A stretch of DNA of 64,000 bases from Candidatus Micrarchaeia archaeon. GTDB taxonomy: Archaea; Micrarchaeota; Micrarchaeia; Norongarragalinales; Norongarragalinaceae. The stretch spans positions 30,528-94,527 of the forward strand of contig JBAZPG010000002.1 in assembly GCA_041648335.1 (NCBI GenBank), written 5' to 3'. The translations under genes were made by a program, and so were the position numbers. The first letter of the stretch is position 1; each line of letters begins with the position of its first letter. This document shows positions 551 through 48,954 of this stretch, one piece after another. The notes beneath the pieces were generated by a model. It was not told the origin of the DNA, made no database searches, and saw nothing but the letters and a program-made list of their open reading frames with translations.

Positions 551-790
551 TTGTTGGGACGCGTAATGTTTACGCTGCCGCGCGGTTATATATTTTGGGG
601 GGGCGCGTTGAGTCCCGCAGGCCAGATTTGAACTGGCAACCCTCTGATTTCGGCTAAGCAACTGTTTCTTTTTTCCGCGAACGGAAAAAACGCCTGACTA
701 CAGTCAGATGCTCTGCCAAGTTGAGCTACTGCGGGGCGTCTGCGCATACCCCCCAAACACTTATAATGCCTCAAAGTTTTATTAAGCGTT

Positions 791-2347
791 ATGCAAGCCC
801 GCCCAAGCCTTTGTTTGACTATAATTCTGTTCGCCTGCCTGGCGTTCGCGAACACCGCGATGGAAGAAGGACGCCTGTACGCGGACGGCTTGGAGGAAGT
901 TTCCCTCGCCAGCGTGTCGGTTGGCGGGAACGACTACCACATCCTACTCTTCGACAACGTGGAGAGCGTTGTCCTGGACGCCGACTCGCTCGAGGCGGTC
1001 ACGGATTCCGCGAAAATCGAGGCTGTCGCCGTAGAATACCAGAAGGCGCAACTGCCGTTGCTGGACCCGGATTCCAAGTATGCGGCGGTCAACGCGTCGT
1101 TCGCGCCCGTGGACTCGGTTGCCGGCGACTGCGTTGAAGGTTTGCAGTTCTTCTTCTCGCGCCCGGGAAGCCAGCTCATAGTTTACACGCGGGGCGCACC
1201 GAATCAGTACCCGCGTTCGCACGACGTGCTCGAGGAGCCGGACAGCGAGTTCATCAACGTTTCATCGTTCAACGACACCTCCCAGCTGGGCGACGCGCAC
1301 TCGGACTTGTGGGACGCGTTCAATGCGATGCAGTCCTCGGTCGCGACCCTCGAGGCGGCGCGCGATTCGGACAGCATAGACGACGCGGTCACCGCGCTCC
1401 ACACCATCGTGGAGAACACGGATGCGCTCCTTTTGGCGTACAACGCCTCGTGGTTTTACATCAACGAGATTGAGGCGGAGTGGAACCAGAACTTCATGTA
1501 TATGTGGATTAACGGCCAGGAGAGGAACTGCGAAGCGTATACCGAGCTGGCGTCGGGCATTTCCGCGCTCGAGTCCGCGGCTAGCGCACCCGAGTTCGAG
1601 ACCACGGATGAATTGATTTCACGGATAATCAGCGAGACCGCCGAACGCGCCCCGATGGCAGCCCAACTCAAGGTGGTGGACGAGAAGCGCGACGCGTTGT
1701 CCGAGTTCAGCGTTCAAGCCAACGCGATAATCAGCGGGTTCGCGGCTTACAACGCGGGTTCCGCGTTCTTCGCCGGGGAATACGCGGCGTTGAACGCGTC
1801 GTTTGACGCCATGGCCGCGGAAGGCGCCGAGGACTCCCTTGAAGCGAACGCAGCCGCGTTCGACGCGAAATTCGCGGAGGTTAAGGCGCTCGCGGACTCG
1901 TATTCGCTCGCCTTGCAGGAGTATTCCGGGGCTAGGGACGTGCTCGCGAACGCTTCCACGCACCTCGCTGCCGCAGCCGAGAAGTACGGCGGCACGGACG
2001 AGCGCATCGTTTCCCTCCAGGCGACCGTCCAGCAGTTGAACTCGCGGCTCACCGTCGAGGAGCAGTTGCTCTCGAGCGGTGCCTACAACGGTTCGACCGC
2101 CGAGTTGGATTTGATTTACGTGAACGCAACGAGCGTGAACGCGGCGGCGTTCGGGATGCAGCCCCGCGAGAACGAACTGGATTGGGTAATGATAGGCGGG
2201 ATAATCGTGCTCTTGCTCACCCTCGTGGGCGGTTTCATTTACCTCAAGAAGTACAAGGACGAAGGCGGGTTCGGCGGAGGCCCGAGCGGACCCAAGTTCC
2301 ACGAGGAAGGCACTTCAAGTTCGCCCGGCACCATAGTCGAACGCTGA
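791..2347 (+). CDS. Ala-rich cell-surface protein with N-terminal signal peptide and C-terminal transmembrane anchor
   Basis: N-terminal hydrophobic signal (LCLTIILFACLAFA); C-terminal TM helix (IGGIIVLLLTLVGGFIY) followed by short Gly-rich tail; long helical Ala/Glu-rich body. Confidence 0.6.
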   Translation: MQARPSLCLTIILFACLAFANTAMEEGRLYADGLEEVSLASVSVGGNDYHILLFDNVESVVLDADSLEAVTDSAKIEAVAVEYQKAQLPLLDPDSKYAAVNASFAPVDSVAGDCVEGLQFFFSRPGSQLIVYTRGAPNQYPRSHDVLEEPDSEFINVSSFNDTSQLGDAHSDLWDAFNAMQSSVATLEAARDSDSIDDAVTALHTIVENTDALLLAYNASWFYINEIEAEWNQNFMYMWINGQERNCEAYTELASGISALESAASAPEFETTDELISRIISETAERAPMAAQLKVVDEKRDALSEFSVQANAIISGFAAYNAGSAFFAGEYAALNASFDAMAAEGAEDSLEANAAAFDAKFAEVKALADSYSLALQEYSGARDVLANASTHLAAAAEKYGGTDERIVSLQATVQQLNSRLTVEEQLLSSGAYNGSTAELDLIYVNATSVNAAAFGMQPRENELDWVMIGGIIVLLLTLVGGFIYLKKYKDEGGFGGGPSGPKFHEEGTSSSPGTIVER

Positions 2348-2475
2348 ACCGTGTTTCAGAACGAACCTTTTTCAAAAAAAGGTTCATCAAAAACCTGCTT
2401 ATGGGGGAACCGTGATTCAGAACGAACCTTTTCTTTACGAAAGAAAAGGTTCATCAAAAGAAAACTGGACGGCTT
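2347..2475. repeat. Two tandem partial copies of the tRNA-Pro 3' end, each followed by a perfect hairpin (gaacctttttcaaaaaaaggttc; gaaccttttctttacgaaagaaaaggttc)
   Basis: The motif (t)atgggggaaccgtgattcagaacgaacc at about 2348 and 2401 mirrors the 3' acceptor/T-arm of the adjacent tRNA-Pro (2476-2500); hairpins carry T/A runs. Confidence 0.55.
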
Positions 2476-2548
2476 ATGGGGGAACCGTGATTCGAACACG
2501 GGTCTCCAGCTCCCAAAGCTGGCAGGATGCCAAGCTACCCCATTCCCC
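2476..2548 (-). tRNA. tRNA-Pro (anticodon TGG)
   Basis: Reverse complement: acceptor GGGGGAA/TTCCCCC, D-arm, anticodon stem CCAGC/GCTGG with loop TTTGGGA, T-arm CCGTG-TTCGAAT-CACGG, discriminator A. Confidence 0.75.
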
Positions 2549-2579
2549 CTCTTACTTATTTTTACACCCACACGCGGTT

Positions 2580-4884: not shown

Positions 4885-6090
4885 TCAAAGCGCCTCCAAT
4901 GCCTTCGCCGCCTTTGCCGTAACACGCGCCTCGAAGTCAGTGCGCGTCTCCCCCTCGGGTTTCGCCTCTTTGAGCGCGTCAAGCAGGGGCAGGGCGGGTG
5001 CCGTGTTCCACTTCCCGCAAGAGAGTTCTTCGAACAGCTTCTCCTCGACTTCCCGCTTGTTCTCCCCTTCGACTTTGAACGCTGCTGATTCGGGCGACGA
5101 CAAGCCCGCGCGGTTCACTTTCACCGCCAGCGCACCAGTGAACGCCGCGGCAATTGAGTTGAACTCGATTTCCCCGGGATTCCCGGACGCGAGCGTCCCG
5201 TGCACCTTGAGCAGGACTATTTTGCCCGCGCACTTGCATGCACGCGCCTTTTCCAACAAGGCTTCGCGCACTTGCGCCGGACTCTTTTCGTTGGCGTCCG
5301 CCTCGACCGCAATTGCCTGCGCCGCGTTAACGGGTTTGAATTCAGTTGTTGTTTTTCCGTTGTTCACGCGCACCAGGTAGAACCCGTGCTCTTTTTTTGA
5401 GAGGTCCTCCAAGTCACGGTAATCCGCGGCGAACAACGGCCCCGGAAACACGATTTTTCCATAGTTTTTCTCGGTTGTTTCGATGCGTTCGTGCACGTGC
5501 CCGCCCGCGTAATAGTCGAAGCCCTTCGGGAACAGCGAGAGCGGCACGCCGTCCACTCCCTTCAGGAAGTCCGGCTTGTGTTCCTCTACCCCCGAGTGGA
5601 AAACGAATATCTTGTAACCAACACCCGCCTCGAGGGAAGCGCGGTCGAGCGCCTCGAAGTGCTCGCGTTCGATGCCGCGCTTTCGGGCATCCAAGCCCGT
5701 GAGGCGCGCCCCGGTTTCCTTGTCCTCGGCGAACGAGAGCTTCAAGCGTTCCCCCTCGTAATCTCCGAGGGACACCTTGGACAGGAGCCCCGCGCTCTCG
5801 AGCACGTCGATTAAGTTTTTCTCGGCGGGAGAATAGTCGTGCGAGCCGTACACCGCGTACACGCGCTTGCCTTGGTCGCGGAGGCGGCGGAGCGCGCGCA
5901 CCGCGCGGTTTGCCACCCCTAAGTCGGGTAACGGGGAGTCGAACAAGTCGCCCGCGATGATTACGAAGTCCGCTTCGCCGCACCCATCCAAGGCGAGCTC
6001 GAAGGCACGGCAGTTCAACTCGCGTAACTCGGGTTCCCGGAAAGCCCCGAGGTGGACGTCGCTGATGTGCGCGAAGCAGAAGTCCTTCAT
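4885..6090 (-). CDS. mre11: DNA double-strand break repair nuclease Mre11 (calcineurin-like phosphoesterase)
   Basis: N-terminal HISDVHLG and GDLFD phosphoesterase motifs; abuts rad50 (stop/start adjacent) in the canonical mre11-rad50 order. Confidence 0.9.
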   Translation of the reverse strand: MKDFCFAHISDVHLGAFREPELRELNCRAFELALDGCGEADFVIIAGDLFDSPLPDLGVANRAVRALRRLRDQGKRVYAVYGSHDYSPAEKNLIDVLESAGLLSKVSLGDYEGERLKLSFAEDKETGARLTGLDARKRGIEREHFEALDRASLEAGVGYKIFVFHSGVEEHKPDFLKGVDGVPLSLFPKGFDYYAGGHVHERIETTEKNYGKIVFPGPLFAADYRDLEDLSKKEHGFYLVRVNNGKTTTEFKPVNAAQAIAVEADANEKSPAQVREALLEKARACKCAGKIVLLKVHGTLASGNPGEIEFNSIAAAFTGALAVKVNRAGLSSPESAAFKVEGENKREVEEKLFEELSCGKWNTAPALPLLDALKEAKPEGETRTDFEARVTAKAAKALEAL

Positions 6091-6115
6091 AGCAGTTTTT
6101 TGGTCGCCAGCGAAT

Positions 6116-6412
6116 TTAAACGAAGCGAGGGGTGACTGCCGGTGTTAATTGCCCTTTATACCATCGCTCGTATTCCTTGTGGTTGCCCACGAAGACGACG
6201 CGCTTTTGTTTGAGGTCCGCACGCGTCTTGAACACGATTCTGTAACCGCCGACTTCCTCCACGAACACGGGCAAGCCGCGCCTCAAGTGCCTGGATTCGG
6301 CGTCCTCGCGCTCCAGCCACGCCAGCTTTTTGGCTATCTTGTCGCGCGCCGTCTTGTCCAACCGCGACAACTGCCTCGCGGCTTCCTCCTCGAGCGCTAC
6401 TTGAAACGCCAA
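6116..6412 (-). CDS. parE: Type II toxin, RelE/ParE family
   Basis: 98-aa protein with YRIVF...RVVFVGNHKEYERWYK C-terminal motif typical of RelE/ParE toxins; 4 nt downstream of an RHH antitoxin gene. Confidence 0.65.
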   Translation of the reverse strand: MAFQVALEEEAARQLSRLDKTARDKIAKKLAWLEREDAESRHLRRGLPVFVEEVGGYRIVFKTRADLKQKRVVFVGNHKEYERWYKGQLTPAVTPRFV

Positions 6413-6416
6413 TGAA

Positions 6417-6689
6417 TCACTTCCGCGCGTTCGCGCGCTTTACCGCCTCGCGCCAGGGCACGAGCTTGCGCTTGCCGGCGTCAATCTCGGCGTCAATCCG
6501 CTCGGTTTTGCGCGCCACGAGTTCAACCTCGATTTCCTTTGGGTCCATCAAGCAATACTCCCTGCCGAGTTCGAGCACGCCCGCGCGAATGGCTTCCGAA
6601 CGGGTTTGAAAATAACCCCGTTCAACGAGCTTATCCAGCACCACGGAAACCGCGCCCTCCAACCTAACCACTGCTTCCAAGCAAACCAC
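6417..6689 (-). CDS. parD: Type II antitoxin, ParD-like ribbon-helix-helix protein (GTG start)
   Basis: LDKLVERGYFQTRSEAIRAGVLEL matches the ParD/RHH consensus (sGrYasrSEvIRaaLR); operon partner of the ParE-like ORF. Confidence 0.65.
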   Translation of the reverse strand: MVCLEAVVRLEGAVSVVLDKLVERGYFQTRSEAIRAGVLELGREYCLMDPKEIEVELVARKTERIDAEIDAGKRKLVPWREAVKRANARK

Positions 6690-6790
6690 CTATAGAACAT
6701 ATACAAAACACCTATTATTATAGGTATTCTGTATTTTGCGGCGGGTTGCCCGGTAGCTGTTCCGCGGCCGGGTTAAAAAACGATTTCCAA
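6690..6790. promoter_or_regulatory. AT-rich divergent intergenic region with near-palindrome acctat-tatt-ataggt (6710-6725) and TATA-like tracts; candidate parDE promoter/operator
   Basis: Palindrome sits about 20-36 nt upstream of the parD start; GC drops sharply relative to flanks. Confidence 0.35.
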
Positions 6791-6887
6791 CCCGTGCCTG
6801 CCGGTGGAGATGCCTCGTTTTTGTTTCGAGTCCGCGCGTTTTGAGTGCCAGCCGAGGTTATAAGGCGGGCTTGCCAGTAATGTTTTT

Positions 6888-7556
6888 ATGCCTAGGCCTA
6901 TGCTTGAGAAGCCGGCGTTTAATCGTCGGGATTTGTCCCGGTTATCCGGAGAAGAGCGCAAAAACTATCTCGCTAACCTGCTTAGGTTGGTGCCAAGCCC
7001 GATCCATTCTAACACTAAACCCATAATCGCCGCGTTTATGAAAAATAGGTCACTTAATACTGCCGCGAAAGTGTTGAATGATACCGGCGTTGTTGTCAAC
7101 AAAATAGCACAAATATTTAGGGCGCACGGCGCTGATCACCGCGGAATTACTAATGGTTTGAATGCTGCGGGTTTTGGTAATGAGGATATTGCTCGTGGTT
7201 TGAAGTCTGCTGGTTTTGATTACGAGGATATTACTAGTGGTTTGAAGTCTGCTGGTTTTGGTCATGAGGATATTGCTCGTGGTTTGATTTCTGCGGGTTT
7301 TGGTGAGGATACTATTGCTAGTGGTTTGAAGTTTGCTGGTTTTGGTAATGAGGATATTGCGGTTGGTTTGTTTGCTGCTGGTTTTAGTCATGTGGGCGTT
7401 GCGAGTGGTTTGAAGGCTGTAGGGTATAATCATGTGGACGTTGCTCGCGGTTTGATTGCTGCTGGTTATGGTCCTAAGGATGTTGCCCGTGGTCTGATTG
7501 ATGCGGGGTTTAGTCCTGAGCGCGTTGTTCTTGGTTTGAAGTTTGCGGGGGTATAA
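6888..7556 (+). CDS. Tandem-repeat protein, N-terminal segment (18-residue GL(K/N)(S/A)AGF..EDIA repeats); terminated by a frameshift in a G5 run
   Basis: Non-repetitive N-terminal 75 aa, then 8 or more repeats of ..EDIARGLKSAGFGH..; stop created at the homopolymer gcggggg (7547-7551). Confidence 0.55.
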   Translation: MPRPMLEKPAFNRRDLSRLSGEERKNYLANLLRLVPSPIHSNTKPIIAAFMKNRSLNTAAKVLNDTGVVVNKIAQIFRAHGADHRGITNGLNAAGFGNEDIARGLKSAGFDYEDITSGLKSAGFGHEDIARGLISAGFGEDTIASGLKFAGFGNEDIAVGLFAAGFSHVGVASGLKAVGYNHVDVARGLIAAGYGPKDVARGLIDAGFSPERVVLGLKFAGV

Positions 7557-7870
7557 CCCTATGGCTGTTGCGATTGGTTTGAATGCTGCTGGTTTTAATC
7601 ATAAGGCTATTACCCGCGGTTTGAATGTTGCTGGTTTTGATCATAAGGCTATTGCCCGTGGTTTGAATGCTGCGGGTTTTGATTATGTGGATATTGTGGC
7701 TGGTTTGAAGTATGCGGGTTTTGGTCACGAGGATATTGCGGTTGGTTTGAAGTCTGCTGGGTATAGTCCGGCGGATGTTGCTCAGTGTTTGAAAGCGGTT
7801 GGTTCTAGGGATTACAACGAACTTGCTCGTGCTTTGAAAGCCGCTGGTTTTGATAACCTAGACATTGCCC
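7130..7870 (+). repeat. About 54-bp coding tandem repeats (ggtttgaa..gctggttttg..gaggatattgc..) underlying the repeat protein
   Basis: Direct repeats visible at nucleotide level; produce low-complexity shadow ORFs on the opposite strand. Confidence 0.6.
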
Positions 7871-7962
7871 GCTTTTTGAAGGCTTCCGGTTTGAGTACTG
7901 CCCGTTACCCCTATAATCCTGGACCTAGTCGGGCGGTTCTTAAAAAAGTTATAAAAAAATAG
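7543..7962 (+). CDS. Tandem-repeat protein, C-terminal segment (same repeat family, +1 frame relative to 6888-7556)
   Basis: Continues the identical repeat (GLNAAGFNHKAITRGLNVAGFDHKAIARGL...) and ends in a non-repetitive tail; removing one G at 7547-7551 fuses both ORFs into one ~357-aa protein. Confidence 0.55.
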   Translation: MRGYNPMAVAIGLNAAGFNHKAITRGLNVAGFDHKAIARGLNAAGFDYVDIVAGLKYAGFGHEDIAVGLKSAGYSPADVAQCLKAVGSRDYNELARALKAAGFDNLDIARFLKASGLSTARYPYNPGPSRAVLKKVIKK

Positions 7963-7980
7963 GTGCCGGCGGGTGTTGGT

Positions 7981-8397
7981 TCAGCGGAGTGATACGTGGT
8001 GGTGGCGGAAGCGCTGCCACACGCTCGGCTCCTTATTCGTGAGCGTCACCGTGCGGTCGTCGTGGATGCGCGCGTGCGCGTGCTTTGCGTGCAAGCCGTG
8101 TGCACGGAATGCCTCGCGCAAGGCGGCGCGTTCGCGTTCGACTATGCTGCGGCTGTAATACATTCCCGCGAGGATTACGAGCGCGAAGAACAGGGGCGCG
8201 TTCGACAGGACGAATTCCGTTAGCGGGTGGATTGCCGTGCGAAGTATTATGGGGTGTGCGGCGAGCGCGCTCAACGCCAGCGCGGTTAAGCCCAGGGCTT
8301 CGGCAGCGTAGTAACGCGCGCGTAACGCCACGAAGCGCGAGACGCGCGCGCGCAACGCCGCGGGTAACTCGGCGTGCGCGTAGTGCCGGTCCTTCAC
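7981..8397 (-). CDS. Hypothetical membrane protein, translationally coupled (ATGA overlap) to the herA stop
   Basis: 138-aa ORF with 2-3 hydrophobic helices; start overlaps herA stop by 4 nt. Confidence 0.45.
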
Positions 8398-15319: not shown

Positions 15320-17446
15320 ATGAACAAGACAACGTTGCGTGTCACGGGAATGCACTGCGCTTCGTGCGCCGTCAACCTTGAGAAGGCGCTCAAGAAGACG
15401 CCGGGCGTTACCGGCGCGTCCGTCAATTTTGCCACGCAAAAGGCGACGGTGGAGCACGCCGAGCACGTGCATTCCGCGGAACTGGTGGCTGCGGTAAGCA
15501 AGGCGGGTTATACCGCGTTCGAGCAGGGAATCGCGCATGTGCCGGTCGAGGAGTCAACGGAAGTCAAGAATGATTTGCTCGTTGCCGTGCCGCTCGCTTT
15601 CCTCGTTTTCGTGCTTTCGTTCGTCGAAAGCGTTCCTTCGCTGCTCTTGTTTTTCCTTGCGCTGCCCGTGCAGTTCTGGGCGGGCCGCAGCTTTTACGCC
15701 CGCACGCTTGCAGCGTTGCGCCGCGGAAGCGCGGACATGGACGTACTCGTGGCAATCGGCACGAGCGCCGCGTTCTTCTACAGTGCGGCGGTAACTTTCG
15801 GCTTCCTCCAGGGTTCTCTGTACTACGACGGCGCGGCGGTCATAATCGCGTTCATCCTCCTCGGGCGCTACCTTGAGGCGCGTTCGCGCTCGCTTACCGG
15901 CGAAGCCGTGCGCAAGCTCATGGATTTGCAGCCAAAAAAAGCGCGCGTCCTGCGCAACGGACGCCTAGTCGAAGTGCCCGTTGAACTGTTGAAAGCCGGC
16001 GATGTTTTCCTCGTTAAGCCCGGCGAGCGCGTGGCAACTGACGGCATCGTGGTTTTTGGGGACTCGGCGGTGGACGAGTCCATGGTAACGGGCGAGTCCA
16101 TGCCCGTTGAAAAAAGAAAAGGCGACGCGGTGGTCGGCGGCACGGTTAACGGAAGCGGGGCGCTTCGCGTGCGCGCCACGCGCGTCGGTTCCGAGACGAT
16201 GCTCGCGCAGATAGTCAAGCTGGTCGAGGACGCACAGGCAACCAAGGCGCCCGTGCAGCTCCTCGCGGATCGTGTCGCAGCCGTGTTCGTGCCCGTGGTG
16301 ATAGTGATTGCCTTTGCAGCCGCAGGATACTGGTTGCTTCTCGCTCACGCGTCGTTCGACTTCGCGCTAACGGTTTTCGTTTCCGTGCTCATAGTCGCGT
16401 GCCCGTGCGCGCTGGGCTTGGCGATGCCCGTAGCCGTGCTCGTTGGAACGGGGAAGGGCGCGGAACAGGGCATACTAATCAAGGGCGGCGACGCGCTGGA
16501 AGCCGCGGGAAAAATAAATACTGTTGTTTTCGACAAGACGGGCACGCTCACCAACGGCAAGCCGAGTGTTACGGACGTGGTCGCGTTCGGGAAGGTTGAC
16601 GCGCTGCGCTTTGCCGCAATCGCGGAAAAGAATTCCGAACACCCGCTCGCGAAGGCGATTCTCGCCAAGGCGGGTCGCGTGCCGAACCCGACTGCATTCA
16701 AAAGCGTCACCGGCAAGGGCGTGAAGGCGCGCTATGCTGGGAAGGAAATCGCGGTTGGCAGCAGGAAGCTGGTGAAGTGCGGTGCGAAGGAGGATTCGGC
16801 TGCGAAAAAGCTGGAGGCGCAAGGTAAGACGGTCGTTTTCGTTGGTTTGGACGGCAAGTGCGTGGGCGTGATAGCGATTGCGGACACCATCAAGCCGCAC
16901 GCCGCCGAGGCGGTTGCCGCACTCAAGCGCAAGGGCTTCAACGTGGCGATGATTACGGGCGACAACGAGAGCACTGCGCGCGCGATTGCCACCGAAGCGG
17001 GCATTGACGAAGTGATAGCCGAAGTGCTTCCCGTGGAAAAGGAACGCGAAGTCGCGCGCATGCAAAAAGCCGGTCGCAGGGTTGCCTTCGTTGGCGACGG
17101 GGTGAACGACGCACCCGCCCTCGCCCGCGCTGAGCTGGGCATCGCGTTGGGCAGTGGTACGGATGTGGCTATGGAAACCGGTGGCATCGTTCTCGTGCGT
17201 AACGACTTGCGCGACGTCGCCGCGGCAATCGACTTGAGCTGTTACACGCTGCGCAAAATCAGGGAGAACCTGTTCTGGGCGTTCGCCTACAACGTCGCCG
17301 CGATTCCAGTCGCCGCGGGCGCGCTGTATTCGTACGGCGTGATGCTTGACCCCATGCTGGCAGGTGCTGCGATGGCGTTCTCAAGCGTTTCCGTGGTTGG
17401 CAACGCGTTGCTAATGCGCGGCTGGAAGCCGGAAGATCACGGGTAG
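15320..17446 (+). CDS. copA: Copper-translocating P1B-type ATPase
   Basis: N-terminal HMA GMHCASC, TM CPC motif (ACPCALG), DKTGTLT phosphorylation site, [10 protein letters not shown] hinge; ATG at 15320 with GGAGGG upstream is preferred over the TTG at 15302. Confidence 0.9.
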
Positions 17447-18714
17447 GCGCGGTTGATTACGCGCGGGAACGGCACCGCGTCCCGGATGTGCTCGAGGTTC
17501 AAGAGCCACTTCACGAGGCGCTCGATTCCCAACCCGAACCCGCTGTGTGGCACCGAGCCGTAACGCCGCAAGTCCAGGTACCACTCGTACTCCTTCAAGT
17601 CGAGCCCCTGCGCGCGCATCTTGTTCACGAGCGCGTCGTAATTCCACTCGCGCTGGGAGCCCCCGATTATTTCGCCGTGCCCCTCGGGTGCGAGGACGTC
17701 CGCGTTCAACGCGTACTTGCCGTCCGGCGTTGTCGCCATGTAGAACGGCTTGATTTCCGCCGGGAAGCGCGTCACGAACAACGGCTTCTCGAGGCCCTCG
17801 GTGAGCTTCTCTTCCTGGGGGACGCCGAAGTCGTCGCCCCACTCGATTCCGCACGTTTCCACTGCCTCGTCGTAAGTCATGTGGTGGAACGGCGGCTCGA
17901 TTGCGAACAACTCTTCCGTCTTGCGGTTGAAGTGCCTCAAAAACGGAGCGTCGTTTTCGGCGAGCTTGCGCGCCACGTACGAAACGAGTTCCTCCTGGAG
18001 GCGCATGTTGTCCTCGTTGTCGTAGTGCGCGGCTTCCTCCTCGAGGTGCCAGTACTCGGTCAAGTGCTTTACCGTCCGGCTTTTTTCGGCGCGGAACGAC
18101 GGCGCGAGAATGAATACTTTCTCGAGGGAGGTGATGAACGCCTCGTTGTAGAGCTGCCCGCTCTGGGACAGGTATGCCTTTTCGCCGAAGTAGTCGAGCT
18201 CGAATAGCGTGGAGCCGCCCTCGCACCCGCTCTTCGTGATTATCGGGGGTGAAACCTCCCAGAAGCCCTGCTGCTGGAAGTACTCGCGGAGATAACGCAC
18301 GATGTGGTCGCGCGCCTTCATGGCGTTCGTTAGCTTTTGCGAGCGCAACCACAAGTGCCTCTTGTCCAACAAGAGCTCGGGGCTCTGGTGCTCGGTAATC
18401 GGGAACGCCTCGCCGTGGTGCGTCAAACGGAACATTGTCGCACGGAGCTCCCACCCGCCCGGGGCGCGCTCGTCCCTGTGCACGGTGCCGCTAACCTCGG
18501 CTGCGGACTCGATGAAAACCTTGCGCGCATCCTCGAAGTCGTTCTCCGGCACGGAGTCCTTCTTGACTGCGCACTGGATCGTGCCCGTGGAGTCGCGCAT
18601 CACCACGAAAGCCAGGTTATTGCTCGCGCGCGCCCGGTGAACCCATCCGCGAAGCGAAACGCTTTCGCCTTCGGCAGCCTTCCCATCCAGGACGAACCCG
18701 ATTGGCGTGAACAT
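17437..18714 (-). CDS. asnS: Class IIb aminoacyl-tRNA synthetase, most likely asparaginyl-tRNA synthetase (AspRS not excluded)
   Basis: N-terminal OB anticodon-binding domain; motif 2 [21 protein letters not shown] resembles AsnRS ([21 protein letters not shown]) more than archaeal AspRS; motif 3 GFGLGIERL. Confidence 0.7.
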
Positions 18715-19151: not shown

Positions 19152-20100
19152 TTGCTTTGCCTGAAACCGCTTTTTTCAAGAATTCTTTTGCACCTGGCGG
19201 AAGTGTTATGTTACGTATGCTGCGCGCTATCACCGCCCTGCGAGCTTTCTTCGTGCCCATTCCGGACACGAGGTTGCGTAAGTATTCGACTCCCCCGTTG
19301 GGCATATGTTCCTCCATTTGGTATGCTTCCCGTCCCAAAAACGTGCCCAGCCAGTATGCGTTTGATTTCTCGTTTTTTTCTACGTCTTCTTTTTCTTTTG
19401 GCTCCTCGGCAGCCATAATCTCTTCGTGAGTGTATTCCGGTTGGCTTTTCGCAGTCACAACTATTTTTGTGCCTGCAGGGTAATTGGTAACCATTGCGGT
19501 GTATTTTCCGATTGCATTCACTATTGCGTGTGGCAGTTCCAAGGCGTGCCCGGTTTCATGGGACATTACCTGCGCAACAAAGATTTCCGCGGACTTTGGA
19601 ATCCTTTGTTCTGTATATTTTTTGATTGGACCCACAGTTATTAATCGTAATCCATCTATTCTACCACATCCAGCGGATTCTTCTTCAAAGCGGGTTCCAG
19701 CCAATATAATCCGAGCTTTAAGGTTCGGTCTTTTTGCTTTTGCTACCCTGAGGGTGGTGAATATTCCCCGTATTGCCGCATTTTTTTGCGATGGTGTGAG
19801 CTGGTTCCAACGGCTTTCATTAGGCCAATCGTATTCTTCAGCAAGTTCTCTGGCGCGTTCCAGACTCTTTTCGGCGAGTTTCCTCAAACCTTTTTCAGCT
19901 TCACTCTTCAACAACGCTTCTTTCTCTTCCGGTGTTAGACTAAAACAATATCTTAAATCGTTTAAGATTTCCCGCGCTCTTTCTGGTTGATTGTGAATGG
20001 CGTCGGCTGCTTCGTGCAAGTTGTCTGCATTATCTATTTCCCGAGATAAGTGCAAACCCCGGCAGTTCATTTGCGATTCGGAGAATTTCTCTTCAGGCAT
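19126..20100 (-). CDS. HExxH zincin-like metallopeptidase of unknown family, in a low-GC (about 47%) segment
   Basis: HETGHALELPH motif; Lys/Glu-rich; GC clearly below flanks (eye estimate from AT-rich runs). Confidence 0.5.
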   Translation of the reverse strand: MPEEKFSESQMNCRGLHLSREIDNADNLHEAADAIHNQPERAREILNDLRYCFSLTPEEKEALLKSEAEKGLRKLAEKSLERARELAEEYDWPNESRWNQLTPSQKNAAIRGIFTTLRVAKAKRPNLKARIILAGTRFEEESAGCGRIDGLRLITVGPIKKYTEQRIPKSAEIFVAQVMSHETGHALELPHAIVNAIGKYTAMVTNYPAGTKIVVTAKSQPEYTHEEIMAAEEPKEKEDVEKNEKSNAYWLGTFLGREAYQMEEHMPNGGVEYLRNLVSGMGTKKARRAVIARSIRNITLPPGAKEFLKKAVSGKAIRVASSRP

Positions 20101-32272: not shown

Positions 32273-32499
32273 TTTTTTAGTGCAGGGGAAGGGATTTTCA
32301 TCAAGCCTTTCTTTTCATCGAAGTTTTCTTTCGCGAAAGAAAAGTTCGTTTTTGAACCCTTGAACCCCTAAGGGATTGGCTCCTAAAGCCAACGCGTTTG
32401 ACCAGGCTCCGCCACCCCTGCACAATAATATTTTCGGGCGGCGGGTTAAAAACCGCTTGCGCAAGCAATTAAAAATCCGCGGCGCTTGTTTTCGTTCAG

Positions 32500-46056: not shown

Positions 46057-48828
46057 TCACTCGAACTGCAACGCGGGCTTCAACGGCAACGCCCGGCTGG
46101 CTTTCGCGTTCCCGCTTTCCTCTTCTTTTTCGAGCGCCACTGCGACGTTGAGTTCGCGCTCCAGGAACGCCTTCGCCTGGGCGAGGACAAGCGCCTCGTC
46201 GGGATAGTGCTTGCGTTCCTTGAAAGCGTAAAAGTTCTTCGCCGCGTACTCCCCGAGAGCGCCCTCCAGGTGCGTTTCCTCGGGTTTCGCGGCGCGAGAA
46301 AGGCCTTGCTTGAATTCCTCGGTTTTCTTCTTGGACGCGGTTATTATGATAAGCTTCTTGGGCTTTGCCTTCAGGCGCTTGGCTATGGTGCGCGCGTCCT
46401 CGAGCACGCCCGACAGGTAGTCCTCGCCCGCCTCGGCTTCGGGGTTTATGCGCGACTCGTCGGCTTCAGGCCAGGGGGCGTTGCTCGCGAAGCCCTTGCC
46501 CCCGAGCGTCTCCCAGAGTTCCTCGCAGGCATGCGGGGTAACGGGCGTCATCAAACGCACCCACTTCTCGGCGACGCGGTGCCCCACGAACGCCACCTCT
46601 TCGGGAGAGGCGCGGCGTTTGAGGTGCTCGAACAGGTTGAGCGTCTTGTAGACCGCGGTTTGGGCGTAGTCGCGCACGCGCAGCCCCTCCAGGGCGGCGC
46701 CCGCGTCGCGTACGCTGGACTCGAACTTGCTTAACGCCCAGCGTGCGAGCGGCGAGTCCCTCTCGGCGTGCGGCGAGGCGAACTCCTCGCACAACGCGGT
46801 TATCTTCTCGAGCGTCTTGCGCGAGGCGAGCAGTTCCTTCCTGCGGAAGTCGAGGGTGCTCCCGAAGTCGGCTGCCCCCGCGATGTAGAGGCGGAACAGG
46901 TCGGCGCCGTACTCGCGGCTCACGTCGCTCAACAGCACCACGTTGCCTTTGCTCTTGCTCATCTTGGTGCCCTCGCTGATGAGCATCTCGTTGAGTGAGA
47001 TGCCGCGCGGCCAGTGGCGCTCCTCGAAGATTGCGGTGTGCGCGAAGATGTAGAAACTCAAGTGGTTCGTGACGTGGGCGACGCCCGTGTGCCTCAAGTC
47101 GTTCGGGTACCAGTAGAGGAACTCGCGGCGGCACGATTTCGCGGATTCGTTGCCCGCACCCAGCCCCAGGAAAACGAAGTCGAAGAATTCCTCAGTCAAG
47201 TCCTGCGGCTTCAAGCCGAGCTCGCGGATTTTCTTGATTACGGTGTAGAACGCCATGTACGCGGTGGAGTCGCTGAGGGACTCGATTATCCAGTCGCGGT
47301 TGAACGGCAGCGGCGTGCCCAGTCCGCGGCGGCGGGCGCACGGGCGCTTGTCCAGCCACTCGAACACGTCCTCGAACTGCTTGCGGTAAGCCTCGGGGTA
47401 GATGAGCATGGAGTCAAGGCAGCGGCGCGCGTCGTCCTTCCAGCCCGGCGAGTTGAAGTCGATGAACCACTGGTCGCCCATCACGGCCCCCACTATCTTC
47501 CCGCCGCACCTGCATTGCGCGTGTCTGTTCGTCTCGTAGAATGGCGTTGCCTTGCCTTGCGCCTTGAGCCACGCACCCACCGCCGTCTTCGCTTCCGCGA
47601 CCTTGAGTCCCGCGAATTCGGGGACCACGGGCTTCATCACGCCCCCGTAATACTCCGCCTTGTAGAGCTCGTTCGTGGCTTTCTCGAGTTTGCCGTGCTC
47701 CTTGAGGTTCGCTATCTTCATGCGTTCGCTGACTTCCTTTGCCGGGAACTCGCCGTAACCCTCGAGCGAGATTAAGCTCACCATTTTGATGGCTTCGACT
47801 GCGGCGCGCCACTCGTCCTTCTTACGGAGCTCTTCGAGCGCAACATAATCGTAAGGCGCGTGCGCGGGCACCGAGTGCACGAAACCAGTCGCGTTGTCCG
47901 CGTCCACGAAAGCAGCGGGGAAAATCAATATCTCGCGCCCGAGCGGCGTGACGCACTTCTTGCCCGCGAAGAAAACCCCTTTTTGTTTTTCCTCCACAAC
48001 GTGCTTCCTGCCCTGTAAAGCGATTTTCTCAGCCGCCTCGCGGGAAACCCACCATTTCTCGCCGTCGTCGAAGCGTATCTTGACGTAGTCCGCGTCCGGG
48101 TTAACGAACTCGTTGGTAATCCCGAACACGGTCTCGGGGCGCAGGGTGCACGACACGATGAACGCGTCCCCGAAAGGAAACTTCACGGCGGTGAACTCCA
48201 TCAATTCCACGGGGTCGGTGTCGCCGTCGCGTATGTCGTCCTCGCCCGCAGCGTTCCTGCATTGCGTGCAATACAATAGCGGGTAATCCGCCTGGCGCAG
48301 GTATCCCCGTTCGCGGTATTTCCTGAACTGCCAGTCCACGAACGCGTTGTATTCCGGGTCGCCCGTGGTGAAGCGTCGCGTGTAGTCGAGCGAGAAACCT
48401 ATTGACTTGAAGTCCTGGATGAGCTTGCCCGCGAAATAATTTACAAGGTTCCAGGGCTCCTTGAACGACGCGACTATTTTTTCAATTGCCTGCGCGTCCG
48501 CCTCGTAGTGCGAGACGTACTCGGTGTAAAGCGCGAGCGTCTCAGGGTCGCCAGCCGCAACCTTCGCGCTCACCGCGAGCACGGGTGTCCCGGTGATGTG
48601 GAACGCCATGGGCCACAACACGTTGTAGCCCTTCATGCGCTTGTAACGCGCGATTGCGTCCCCGCTCACGTACGTCCTCCCGTGTCCCACGTGAAGGCAA
48701 CCCGAAACGTACGGGTAGGGAACCGTGAAGAACCACTTCTCGCGTGACTCGTCCGCGCGCGGCTCGAAGGCGCGCTCGTGCTCCCAGGCAGCCTGCCACT
48801 TTTTCTCGACTACGCTGAAGTCCTGCAC
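46057..48828 (-). CDS. leuS: Leucyl-tRNA synthetase (archaeal/eukaryal type)
   Basis: HIGH motif HVGHGRTY, KMSKS motif KMSKSKGN, CP1 editing domain; start placed at in-frame GTG 48828 because the longer track ORF (to 48876) runs into the tRNA-Ser gene. Confidence 0.9.
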   Translation of the reverse strand: MQDFSVVEKKWQAAWEHERAFEPRADESREKWFFTVPYPYVSGCLHVGHGRTYVSGDAIARYKRMKGYNVLWPMAFHITGTPVLAVSAKVAAGDPETLALYTEYVSHYEADAQAIEKIVASFKEPWNLVNYFAGKLIQDFKSIGFSLDYTRRFTTGDPEYNAFVDWQFRKYRERGYLRQADYPLLYCTQCRNAAGEDDIRDGDTDPVELMEFTAVKFPFGDAFIVSCTLRPETVFGITNEFVNPDADYVKIRFDDGEKWWVSREAAEKIALQGRKHVVEEKQKGVFFAGKKCVTPLGREILIFPAAFVDADNATGFVHSVPAHAPYDYVALEELRKKDEWRAAVEAIKMVSLISLEGYGEFPAKEVSERMKIANLKEHGKLEKATNELYKAEYYGGVMKPVVPEFAGLKVAEAKTAVGAWLKAQGKATPFYETNRHAQCRCGGKIVGAVMGDQWFIDFNSPGWKDDARRCLDSMLIYPEAYRKQFEDVFEWLDKRPCARRRGLGTPLPFNRDWIIESLSDSTAYMAFYTVIKKIRELGLKPQDLTEEFFDFVFLGLGAGNESAKSCRREFLYWYPNDLRHTGVAHVTNHLSFYIFAHTAIFEERHWPRGISLNEMLISEGTKMSKSKGNVVLLSDVSREYGADLFRLYIAGAADFGSTLDFRRKELLASRKTLEKITALCEEFASPHAERDSPLARWALSKFESSVRDAGAALEGLRVRDYAQTAVYKTLNLFEHLKRRASPEEVAFVGHRVAEKWVRLMTPVTPHACEELWETLGGKGFASNAPWPEADESRINPEAEAGEDYLSGVLEDARTIAKRLKAKPKKLIIITASKKKTEEFKQGLSRAAKPEETHLEGALGEYAAKNFYAFKERKHYPDEALVLAQAKAFLERELNVAVALEKEEESGNAKASRALPLKPALQFE

Positions 48829-48849
48829 TAGCTTTTCGCCTTTTTGGAA

Positions 48850-48954
48850 CGCCGAGGACGAGATTCGAACTCGCACAGGTCAAAGACCCACCAGATTCCT
48901 CGCCCTTTCTCGGGGCTTCGAGTCTGGCGCGTTACCGGGTTCCGCCACCTCGGC
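48850..48954 (-). tRNA. tRNA-Ser (anticodon CGA) with long variable arm and a putative approx. 20-nt intron after position 37
   Basis: Reverse complement: acceptor GCCGAGG/CCTCGGC, discriminator G; anticodon stem CCAGA/TCTGG enclosing CTCGAA + intron (gccccgagaaagggcgagg; intron CGAG can pair with anticodon CTCG as in BHB motifs); variable arm GGGTC-TTT-GACC; T-arm GCGAG-TTCGAAT-CTCGT. Confidence 0.55.

Follow-up and report, generated by a model that had tools for sequence, protein, structure and literature searches.

How does a tRNA gene come to be followed by repeated pieces of its own 3′ end, each joined to a perfect hairpin? The question is raised by the gene for tRNA-Pro(UGG) in a 64,000-nt stretch of DNA from a Candidatus Micrarchaeia archaeon (GenBank assembly GCA_041648335.1, contig JBAZPG010000002.1, positions 30,528 to 94,527), the whole of which is termed the window. 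The array of two tandem units beside this gene is probably the footprint of a small hairpin module, termed X, which was inserted at the tRNA gene with duplication of the tRNA end and then expanded in tandem. Comparison with related loci revealed recurrent, lineage-variable insertion of this conserved module at tRNA genes, with a duplicated gene end and subsequent change of copy number. X is apparently an undescribed family of tRNA-associated hairpin modules, which also supplies T-loop introns. One small sequence family is found in three forms, namely extragenic inserts with duplicated ends, tandem arrays and T-loop introns. It bears on an open question, the origin of the non-canonical introns, fragments and splits in archaeal tRNA genes, for which transposition and disruption by mobile elements have been proposed, mostly on indirect evidence.

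Architecture of the two-unit array

The tRNA-Pro gene is contiguous, with no interruption of the mature sequence (ARAGORN, Rfam); it does not encode CCA, and its T-arm reads CCGTG-TTCGAAT-CACGG. As the gene lies on the minus strand, its 3′ side points toward lower coordinates, where the two units fill the ~130 bp between the tRNA end and the stop codon of a convergent gene (Table 1). Each unit comprises a copy of the tRNA 3′ segment, starting from the T-loop, followed by the conserved X module of 35-41 nt. The repeat GCTTATGGGGGAACCGTGATTC occurs at 2397-2418 and 2472-2493 with 22/22 identity, and consists of the last 17 nt of the tRNA (T-loop G57 to A73) plus 5 nt of trailer. In 500 shuffles of positions 2301-2600 the longest direct repeat did not exceed 13 nt, which establishes that the repeats pointed out in an earlier note on this DNA are real. 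A second repeat, GAACCGTG(T/A)TTCAGAACGAACCTTTT, lies at 2346-2371 and 2407-2432 with 96% identity. That note had counted two partial copies of the tRNA end; one of them, in unit B, is a full extra copy of the repeat, whereas the distal one, in unit A, is just 12 nt long (11/12). The segment agaacgaacc, taken there as tRNA-derived, belongs to the hairpin module instead.

The perfect palindromes reported after each copy were recovered as two hairpins, at 2363-2385 with a 10-bp stem and at 2424-2452 with a 13-bp stem, the latter reaching 16 bp in the tRNA-sense RNA via G-U pairs. X1 and X2 have identical flanks; the interior of X1 is 6 nt shorter through a symmetric indel within the stem and is still fully paired. 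The units also differ in their spacers, and the 12-nt spacer shares only its terminal TTTC with the spacers of other loci. Successive repeats are 53 and 39 nt apart. On the plus strand unit A reads GAACCGTGtTTC. Its first two bases, GA, also belong to TGA, the stop codon (2345-2347) with which the convergent 518-aa gene ends, so that the copy overlaps this stop. The position of the stop is conserved relative to the 502-aa orthologue of a relative (...VER* versus ...VKR*).

Pattern and repeat searches found no further copy of the 22-nt repeat or of the strict X within the window, and long A/T-run hairpins of the X type occur there only in the array and inside a tRNA-Leu gene described below. 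The 64 kb thus hold three X copies, all at tRNA genes, rather than the many dispersed copies, with short target duplications right beside the inverted repeats, expected of miniature inverted-repeat transposable elements or repetitive extragenic palindromes (REP). An Rfam search of the array region returned nothing but the tRNA.

Table 1. Features of the tRNA-Pro array and of the intron-containing tRNA-Leu gene, in window coordinates
Feature	Position	Strand	Evidence
Convergent gene for a 518-aa secreted/membrane protein	791..2347	plus	no Pfam match
Unit A truncated pseudo-3′ end, GAAaCACGGTTC in tRNA sense, 11/12	2346..2357	minus	repeat search, sequence
Module X1, tRNA sense TTTTGATGAACCTTTTT-TTG-AAAAAGGTTCGTTC-T	2358..2392	minus	covariance model, 59.3 bits
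4-nt spacer AGGT (tRNA sense) between unit B and X1	2393..2396	minus	sequence
Unit B pseudo-3′ end, exact 22-nt copy from T-loop to 3′ end plus trailer	2397..2418	minus	repeat search
Module X2, tRNA sense TTTTGATGAACCTTTTCTTT-CGT-AAAGAAAAGGTTCGTTC-T	2419..2459	minus	covariance model, 56.5 bits
12-nt spacer, tRNA sense CGTCCAGTTTTC	2460..2471	minus	sequence, alignment
Proximal 22-nt repeat copy, tRNA 57-73 plus trailer TAAGC (tRNA sense)	2472..2493	minus	22/22
tRNA-Pro(UGG), intact	2549..2477	minus	ARAGORN; Rfam tRNA, 58.1 bits
tRNA-Leu(UAG) with 56-nt insert	32281..32421	minus	covariance-model match, partial Rfam tRNA match, ARAGORN

Empty sites at the tRNA-Pro locus of relatives

Six contigs with 63% Rad50 identity (L001-L006) keep the gene order MarC, tRNA-Asp, 502-aa gene, tRNA-Pro, BofA and Rad50, with tRNA-Pro in the same orientation as in the window. 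Between the stop codon and the tRNA end they have 26 nt only, without repeat or hairpin, and this short spacer in the closest syntenic relative indicates that the array is a derived insertion. The array was not found in more distant relatives at 54%, 47% and 46% identity, and the contigs L019, L020 and L059 lack it at the tRNA-Pro locus. The repeats do not represent an ancestral structural feature; the earlier note would have recognized a mere structural terminator by identical conservation among distant relatives, which was looked for and is absent, and the empty-site comparison it proposed yielded empty alleles both here and at a second locus (see below). Its reading of the repeats as an integration scar is right in kind and wrong in scale: a derived insertion that duplicated the tRNA 3′ end is supported, while a large element is not, the distance between the repeats being 39-87 nt.

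As a separate observation, BofA and the surface-protein gene flank tRNA-Pro(UGG) in the window and in all relatives alike. The tRNA gene has the same orientation in the window (2477-2549) and L001 (14820-14892), and inverted in L019 (13017-13090), L020 (13006-13079) and L059 (13026-13099), which indicates a small inversion of the tRNA gene alone.

X at other tRNA genes and in other genomes

A GTDB scan with a 24-base gapped pattern revealed X in two other archaeal metagenome-assembled genomes (MAGs), L017 and L018, with one exact-pattern match in each. Both copies agree with the window X in 29 flank bases, five of which (TTTTG) lie outside the pattern. L017 is a marine group II/III archaeon, whose CDO-like protein matches a KM3 fosmid protein at 100% identity over the 88% that align. 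Its X sits between tRNA-Ser(CGA) and a displaced copy of the 3′ end of that tRNA, which is exact over 14 nt and, counted from the T-loop, 88% identical over 24 nt. The insertion of 101 nt comprises the 14-nt duplication and 87 nt of inserted DNA. Six related contigs (CDO identity 83-93%) are empty at this site, where the CDO stop is followed by AG and then directly by the tRNA end; L017 and these relatives thus form a clean filled/empty polymorphism.

The 87-nt insert of L017 also carries, at 6026-6088, an inverted and diverged tRNA 3′ end (GTTCGGAATCACTATCGGAGCGCCA). It stands tail-to-tail with tRNA-Ser, giving an imperfect palindrome with 28-nt arms (79%), and may be a piece of an earlier target.

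In L018, a member of Micrarchaeota, an insert of ~40 nt places X 30 nt upstream of ftsZ2, and related genomes (84-87% FtsZ2 identity) lack X and keep a native cggtaacccaccggagg leader. A role of X as the ftsZ2 promoter found no support, since its A-rich tail faces in the opposite direction and the relatives' native sequence upstream of the gene (cggtaaccc...) has been kept.

A covariance model built from four X copies was then run over the syntenic loci. In L019, an intron-containing tRNA-Asp is followed by a 30-nt spacer, X and an exact 19-nt copy of the tRNA 3′ end that starts in the T-loop. In L001, L020 and L059, a 24-nt copy of the 5′ end of tRNA-Ser(TGA) (positions 1-24) and a diverged X lie upstream of tRNA-Ser(TGA). 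L020 has two such units of 91 nt at 18487-18660, 100% identical and each consisting of the 24-nt tRNA 5′ end, a hairpin and a TATA-like tail; L059, whose sequence is 91-93% identical to that of L020, has one unit only (19241-19330), pointing to a recent tandem duplication. L059 further contains a block of 735-770 nt (15937-16707) in which X is accompanied by a degenerate tRNA-Asp pseudo-3′ end (14/19) and by an HD-domain gene (16069-16701). The block is missing from L020 and is the sole case found of an X copy linked to protein-coding cargo; ~73 nt separate tRNA-Asp from the degenerate pseudo-end.

In total, terminal duplications were found in 5 of the 16 tRNA genes sampled, with the hairpin present each time, and beyond the window X recurs at four other tRNA loci in five other genomes. 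Within the window the 22-nt repeat is confined to tRNA-Pro, and the recurrence at other loci for which the earlier note had called a search is seen instead as X with tRNA-end copies at other tRNAs of relatives. The layout, outward from the tRNA, is the gene end, a spacer of 4-50 nt, X, 0-6 nt, the copy of the terminal 14-24 nt and the native flank. At 3′ ends the copy begins in or just past the T-loop, and at 5′ ends it corresponds to positions 1-24. The duplications measure 12 and 22 nt in the window, 14 nt in L017, 19 nt in L019 and 24 nt at the 5′ ends; in five copies at four loci, the repeats are separated by 39-87 nt.

Four other identities of the array were examined and discarded. A box C/D or K-turn RNA was suggested by UGAUGA ... 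CUGA in the window X, but the D-box-like CUGA is replaced by CGGA in L017 and by CGGU in L018, and the motifs are too closely spaced. In a mini-CRISPR, the "spacers" would not be mutually homologous as they are here, and there are no cas genes. A cDNA-mediated duplication disagrees with a repeat that includes 5 nt of trailer and lacks CCA. Templating of the hairpin from the local T-arm fails as well, as the T-arm of tRNA-Pro (TGTTCG) lacks the GGTTCG of X.

T-loop introns related to X

A weak match of the X model at 32309-32356 led to the tRNA-Leu gene of the window, the T-loop of which is split at 59/60 by the 56-nt insert, with an X-type hairpin at 32319-32348. ARAGORN misses the gene as it stands and calls tRNA-Leu(tag) once the insert is removed in silico; such inserts explain why tRNA finders miss genes of this kind. 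The tRNA-Tyr genes of L020 and L059 carry a similar T-loop insert, which is lacking from the tRNA-Tyr of the window and of L019. By inspection, the T-stem is followed in the Leu and Tyr inserts by a bulge of 3 nt (AA|U60) and a 4-bp helix of UUCA with UGAA or UGGA. T-loop introns at 59/60 are known in Micrarchaeum, where the epsilon2 endonuclease cuts a relaxed motif at this place (PMC3239211), and the Leu and Tyr inserts appear from their sequences to offer a relaxed motif of the kind cut by epsilon2. The junction between X and the pseudo-end at tRNA-Pro (GUUCU|GAAU), assessed by inspection, does not form this combination of bulge and helix, the 4-bp helix being absent.

These introns bring in the possibility that the array is a relic formed at the RNA level, in which a former X-type T-loop intron of tRNA-Pro, together with its 3′ exon, was stranded after the gene regained a contiguous end, by duplication and intron loss or through cDNA. 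X-type hairpins do serve as T-loop introns in the window and in L020 and L059, the pseudo-ends start in the T-loop, and Micrarchaeum is rich in introns and has an endonuclease of broad specificity (PMC3239211). The tRNA-Pro junction, however, does not form the bulge-plus-helix structure of the Leu and Tyr introns, and the 5 nt of trailer in the duplicated segment speak against a cDNA of mature tRNA. In addition, the state of L017 would take three events instead of one insertion, and the tRNA-Pro of L001 is intron-less. We regard such a relic as quite unlikely.

Hairpins within canonical anticodon-loop introns were noted separately. That of tRNA-Tyr in the window (612-735, minus strand) has a T-run/A-run hairpin, CGTTTTTTCCG-TTCG-CGGAAAAAAG, and that of tRNA-Asp in L019 (14944-15052) has the hairpin GAAACTTTT-AAAAAAAGTTTC, which scores 21.7 bits with the X model.

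Pairing of the hairpin and putative termination

Folding revealed a long stem in all 12 X copies and a single stem-loop in 11 of them, despite differing lengths and sequences. Among the orthologous copies upstream of tRNA-Ser(TGA), two compensatory double changes were found, from A-U to G-C in L001 and from C-G to U-A in L059. In this small set, trimmed by hand, 87% of cells are paired, compared to 22-64% with the partners slid, which is suggestive only of maintained pairing.

An archaeal oligo-T terminator consists of about five or more T on the transcribed strand shortly past the gene end. On the minus strand, tRNA-Pro is followed by GTTTTCTTTTG, T4 and T3 and, farther on, T5 and T7; on the plus strand, the stop codon of the 518-aa gene is followed by CCTTTTTC. 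Runs of T4-T7 flank and fill the stems on both strands between the two convergent genes, and oligo-T of terminator length is present on both strands of the array. Placed between tRNA-Pro and the 518-aa gene, the X hairpins probably serve as archaeal terminators for both directions or as insulators, and the terminator alternative of the earlier note is plausible in view of these runs. Termination would be a likely function of the hairpins, not an explanation of their origin. At the 5′ loci, 24 nt separate the tRNA 5′ end from the A-rich tail (ATTAAAAAG) upstream of it, which occupies the place expected for a TATA box.

An origin confined to this locus would have a native bidirectional terminator downstream of tRNA-Pro duplicated together with the tRNA end by replication slippage, with no mobility. 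The oligo-T runs between convergent genes are in keeping with it, tandem copy number does change (L020 versus L059), and similar hairpins are terminators in unrelated phages. Against this, the closest syntenic relative has no hairpin at the site, and a near-identical module is found at different tRNAs, in different genomes and in another phylum. The empty sites related to L017 moreover imply that a whole hairpin block was imported into a 2-nt intergenic gap, and each array ends in a copy of the tRNA end and not in a hairpin, which simple tandem duplication does not predict. The presence of X in other genomes and the L017 empty sites largely refute purely local slippage, which we consider highly improbable.

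Search for an enzyme or a parent element

No integrase, Cas1 or transposase was detected among the 50 largest open reading frames (ORFs) of the window by Pfam, in line with the earlier observation that no integrase is visible nearby; no integrase lies between or near the repeats, and neither cas1 nor polB was found in the window. The repeat and the strict X had no match in viral, phage and plasmid collections including IMG/VR, which are poor in elements of DPANN archaea, and BLAST against plasmids and phages gave noise only. The ends of the inserts are not inverted repeats, and the sole palindrome is internal, according to the repeat search, the comparison of the L017 insert and inspection. 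Two other scans yielded only unrelated matches: those of a looser hairpin pattern in the viral collections were rho-independent terminators of low-GC phages, and nine metagenomic matches to the junction of tRNA copy and X (CCGTGWTTCAGAACGAACC), in a collection without the source contig, were all chance occurrences inside unrelated coding DNA.

These searches bear on the alternative that one or two full-size integrative elements (a virus or plasmid with a tyrosine integrase) used tRNA-Pro as an attachment (att) site and were nearly all deleted, with X as an attP-adjacent arm. Direct repeats from the T-loop to the 3′ end, in tandem, are the classic geometry of tRNA att sites, and relatives have empty sites. 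The fragments at 5′ ends also fit the Caldiarchaeum model, in which a 5′ tRNA fragment and an intron at 24/25 follow the integration of a mobile element (PMC3293823), and the 735-nt block of L059 has an HD-domain gene beside X. Yet all X inserts are short, and the contiguous X is the same in each, an outcome not to be expected of random internal deletions; no integrase was found near the repeats or in the 50 largest ORFs, and no attP-like copy in IMG/VR or the phage and plasmid collections. The decayed or excised large element envisaged earlier is not supported, and we judge deleted full-size elements to be an unlikely source of the array.

Proposed mechanism

Insertion of X may involve two breaks, one at the palindrome that encodes the T-loop and the other close to the end of the gene, with the geometry of a staggered cut by a casposase or integrase. 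The inner boundary is fixed at the T-loop palindrome, the outer one lies at or just past the gene end, growth is in tandem with the degenerate unit distal, and the L017 duplication measures 14 nt; by analogy, the closest resemblance is to the way in which casposases or integrases target tRNA 3′ ends (PMC5137440, PMC4779613, PMC3293823). Since the duplicated segment extends to the gene end, the tRNA remains whole, and X and the displaced end come to lie outside the gene. Growth of the array could reflect a second insertion on the side facing the tRNA or unequal recombination of the repeats. Alternatively, microhomology-mediated template switching might be at work, given that each junction shows GTTC or CGC together with one additional base.

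With a duplication of only ~3 nt (AAA), a hairpin of this kind would become a T-loop (59/60) intron. We accordingly entertain, as a tentative and rather doubtful extension, that X is a mobile module, acting at the DNA level, that inserts into tRNA genes, is common to Micrarchaeota and marine Thermoplasmatota and would be the agent, long sought, by which archaeal tRNA genes gain introns, captured here in filled and empty alleles. X would enter at the T-loop or at 24/25, a long duplication leaving it outside an intact gene, as in tRNA-Pro, and a short one making it a spliceable non-canonical intron, as in tRNA-Leu.

A specific version of the enzymatic scheme invokes Cas1-type integration, as by a casposase or in CRISPR adaptation, with the T-arm as leader, the duplication as repeat and each new unit joining next to the tRNA. 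For its target, the 3′ end of tRNA-Pro, the casposase of A. boonei relies on the T-loop region; it makes a 15-bp duplication, accepts very short substrates and inserts in tandem with polarity, and one off-target event had a 22-bp duplication (PMC5137440, PMC6614799); solo remnants of terminal inverted repeats (TIRs) are known (PMC4779613). The 14-nt duplication of L017 and the degenerate distal unit of the window agree with such a scheme. The insert ends, however, lack terminal inverted repeats, cas1 and polB are missing from the window, the duplications range from 12 to 24 nt, and neither the 5′-end cases nor the T-loop introns are predicted. To our knowledge, casposons have not been reported in Micrarchaeota, and we consider Cas1-type integration very unlikely.

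Several points weigh against insertion of X with tandem expansion. These include the missing enzyme and the missing matches in the element collections noted above. The closest relative of the source has 63% Rad50 identity, leaving no filled/empty pair at tRNA-Pro itself, and the sample comprised ~280 kb of related DNA. The duplication length varies (12, 14, 19, 22 and 24 nt), which is unusual for a single transposase, and the truncation of unit A at the stop codon calls for a further deletion or another history. The X of L018 has no tRNA fragment beside it, and the tRNA-Asp case of L059 is not a simple mini-insertion, its spacer being partly native trailer and its pseudo-end lying inside the HD-gene block. 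Covariation is weak, with 38 of 500 shuffles reaching the observed score, and the terminator role is deduced from sequence. Insertion of the module with subsequent expansion nevertheless remains our probable explanation. If it holds genome-wide, the disruption of tRNA genes in DPANN archaea would have in X a concrete molecular object open to testing, and X would also be a mobile cassette of a new and very small kind, acting as terminator or insulator.

Genomic neighborhood

The window belongs to a chromosome of Micrarchaeota (DPANN) and has a G+C content of 59%, and the proteins recognized by Pfam among its 50 largest ORFs include Rad50, Mre11, HerA and the product of a NurA-like gene; the nearest Rad50 relatives are Micrarchaeota MAGs with identities of at most 63%. 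BofA directly follows Rad50 (2855-2887), and the Carb_kinase gene that separates the two in all relatives (L001 13733-14503) is missing, as is the Na/H exchanger gene that some contigs also have between them. Between Mre11 and HerA, which adjoin in L001 and L020, the window has ~2.3 kb (6091-8393) with five small ORFs of 98, 90, 222, 139 and 138 aa without a solid Pfam match, of which those of 222 and 139 aa share the same weak, sub-threshold matches (RepB_primase_C, DUF494, DUF7626). This stretch may be an inserted cassette. An intron-containing tRNA-Pro(CGG) at 48850-48954 (minus strand), predicted by ARAGORN in intron mode only, overlaps the annotated 5′ end of a LeuRS-like ORF (46057-48876), and the start of this ORF is thus probably over-extended.

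Comparison with known systems

The X insertions resemble the att duplications of SSV-type and pNOB8-type elements and the Caldiarchaeum tRNA-Thr model (PMC3293823) in that a terminal tRNA repeat (3′ or 5′) bounds the insert, the tRNA is intact and relatives have empty sites; as in Caldiarchaeum, the 5′ fragment ends at 24/25. They differ from att duplications in the short distance of 39-87 nt from repeat to repeat, in lacking an integrase and cargo, in sharing an inserted hairpin module among different tRNAs, genomes and phyla, and in forming tandem arrays. With casposon duplications and solo-TIRs (PMC5137440, PMC4779613, PMC6614799) they share a tRNA 3′ end as target, immediately preceded by the T-loop palindrome, duplications that can measure 14-15 bp (22 bp off-target), the predicted tandem growth on the tRNA side and small remnants at target sites. 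In contrast, the X inserts have no terminal inverted repeats, and Cas1 and PolB were not found in the window. Their duplication lies inside the tRNA, from the T-loop to the end, whereas that of casposons is mostly downstream; it is variable in length, compared to the element-specific fixed length of 14-15 bp in casposon family 2, and 5′-end and intron cases exist.

Like the non-canonical introns of Micrarchaeum/ARMAN-2 (PMC3239211), diverged X copies sit at 59/60 in tRNA-Leu and tRNA-Tyr, with a T-stem, 3-nt bulge and 4-bp helix recognized by inspection. The occurrence of related sequences in different tRNAs, implying movement, also recalls the transposition of tRNA introns proposed by Fujishima et al. 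(2010), in so far as that work is cited in PMC4033280. Unlike introns, the X copies at tRNA-Pro are extragenic, do not interrupt a tRNA and lack bulge-helix-bulge geometry. We know of no description of a link between introns and extragenic duplications of tRNA ends. Bacterial repeats of the REP and Correia types are short intergenic palindromes that terminate transcription in both directions and vary between strains. X is likewise a short hairpin in intergenic DNA and a possible two-way terminator; unlike these repeats, it is low in copy number, tied to tRNA genes and accompanied by long duplications of tRNA ends.

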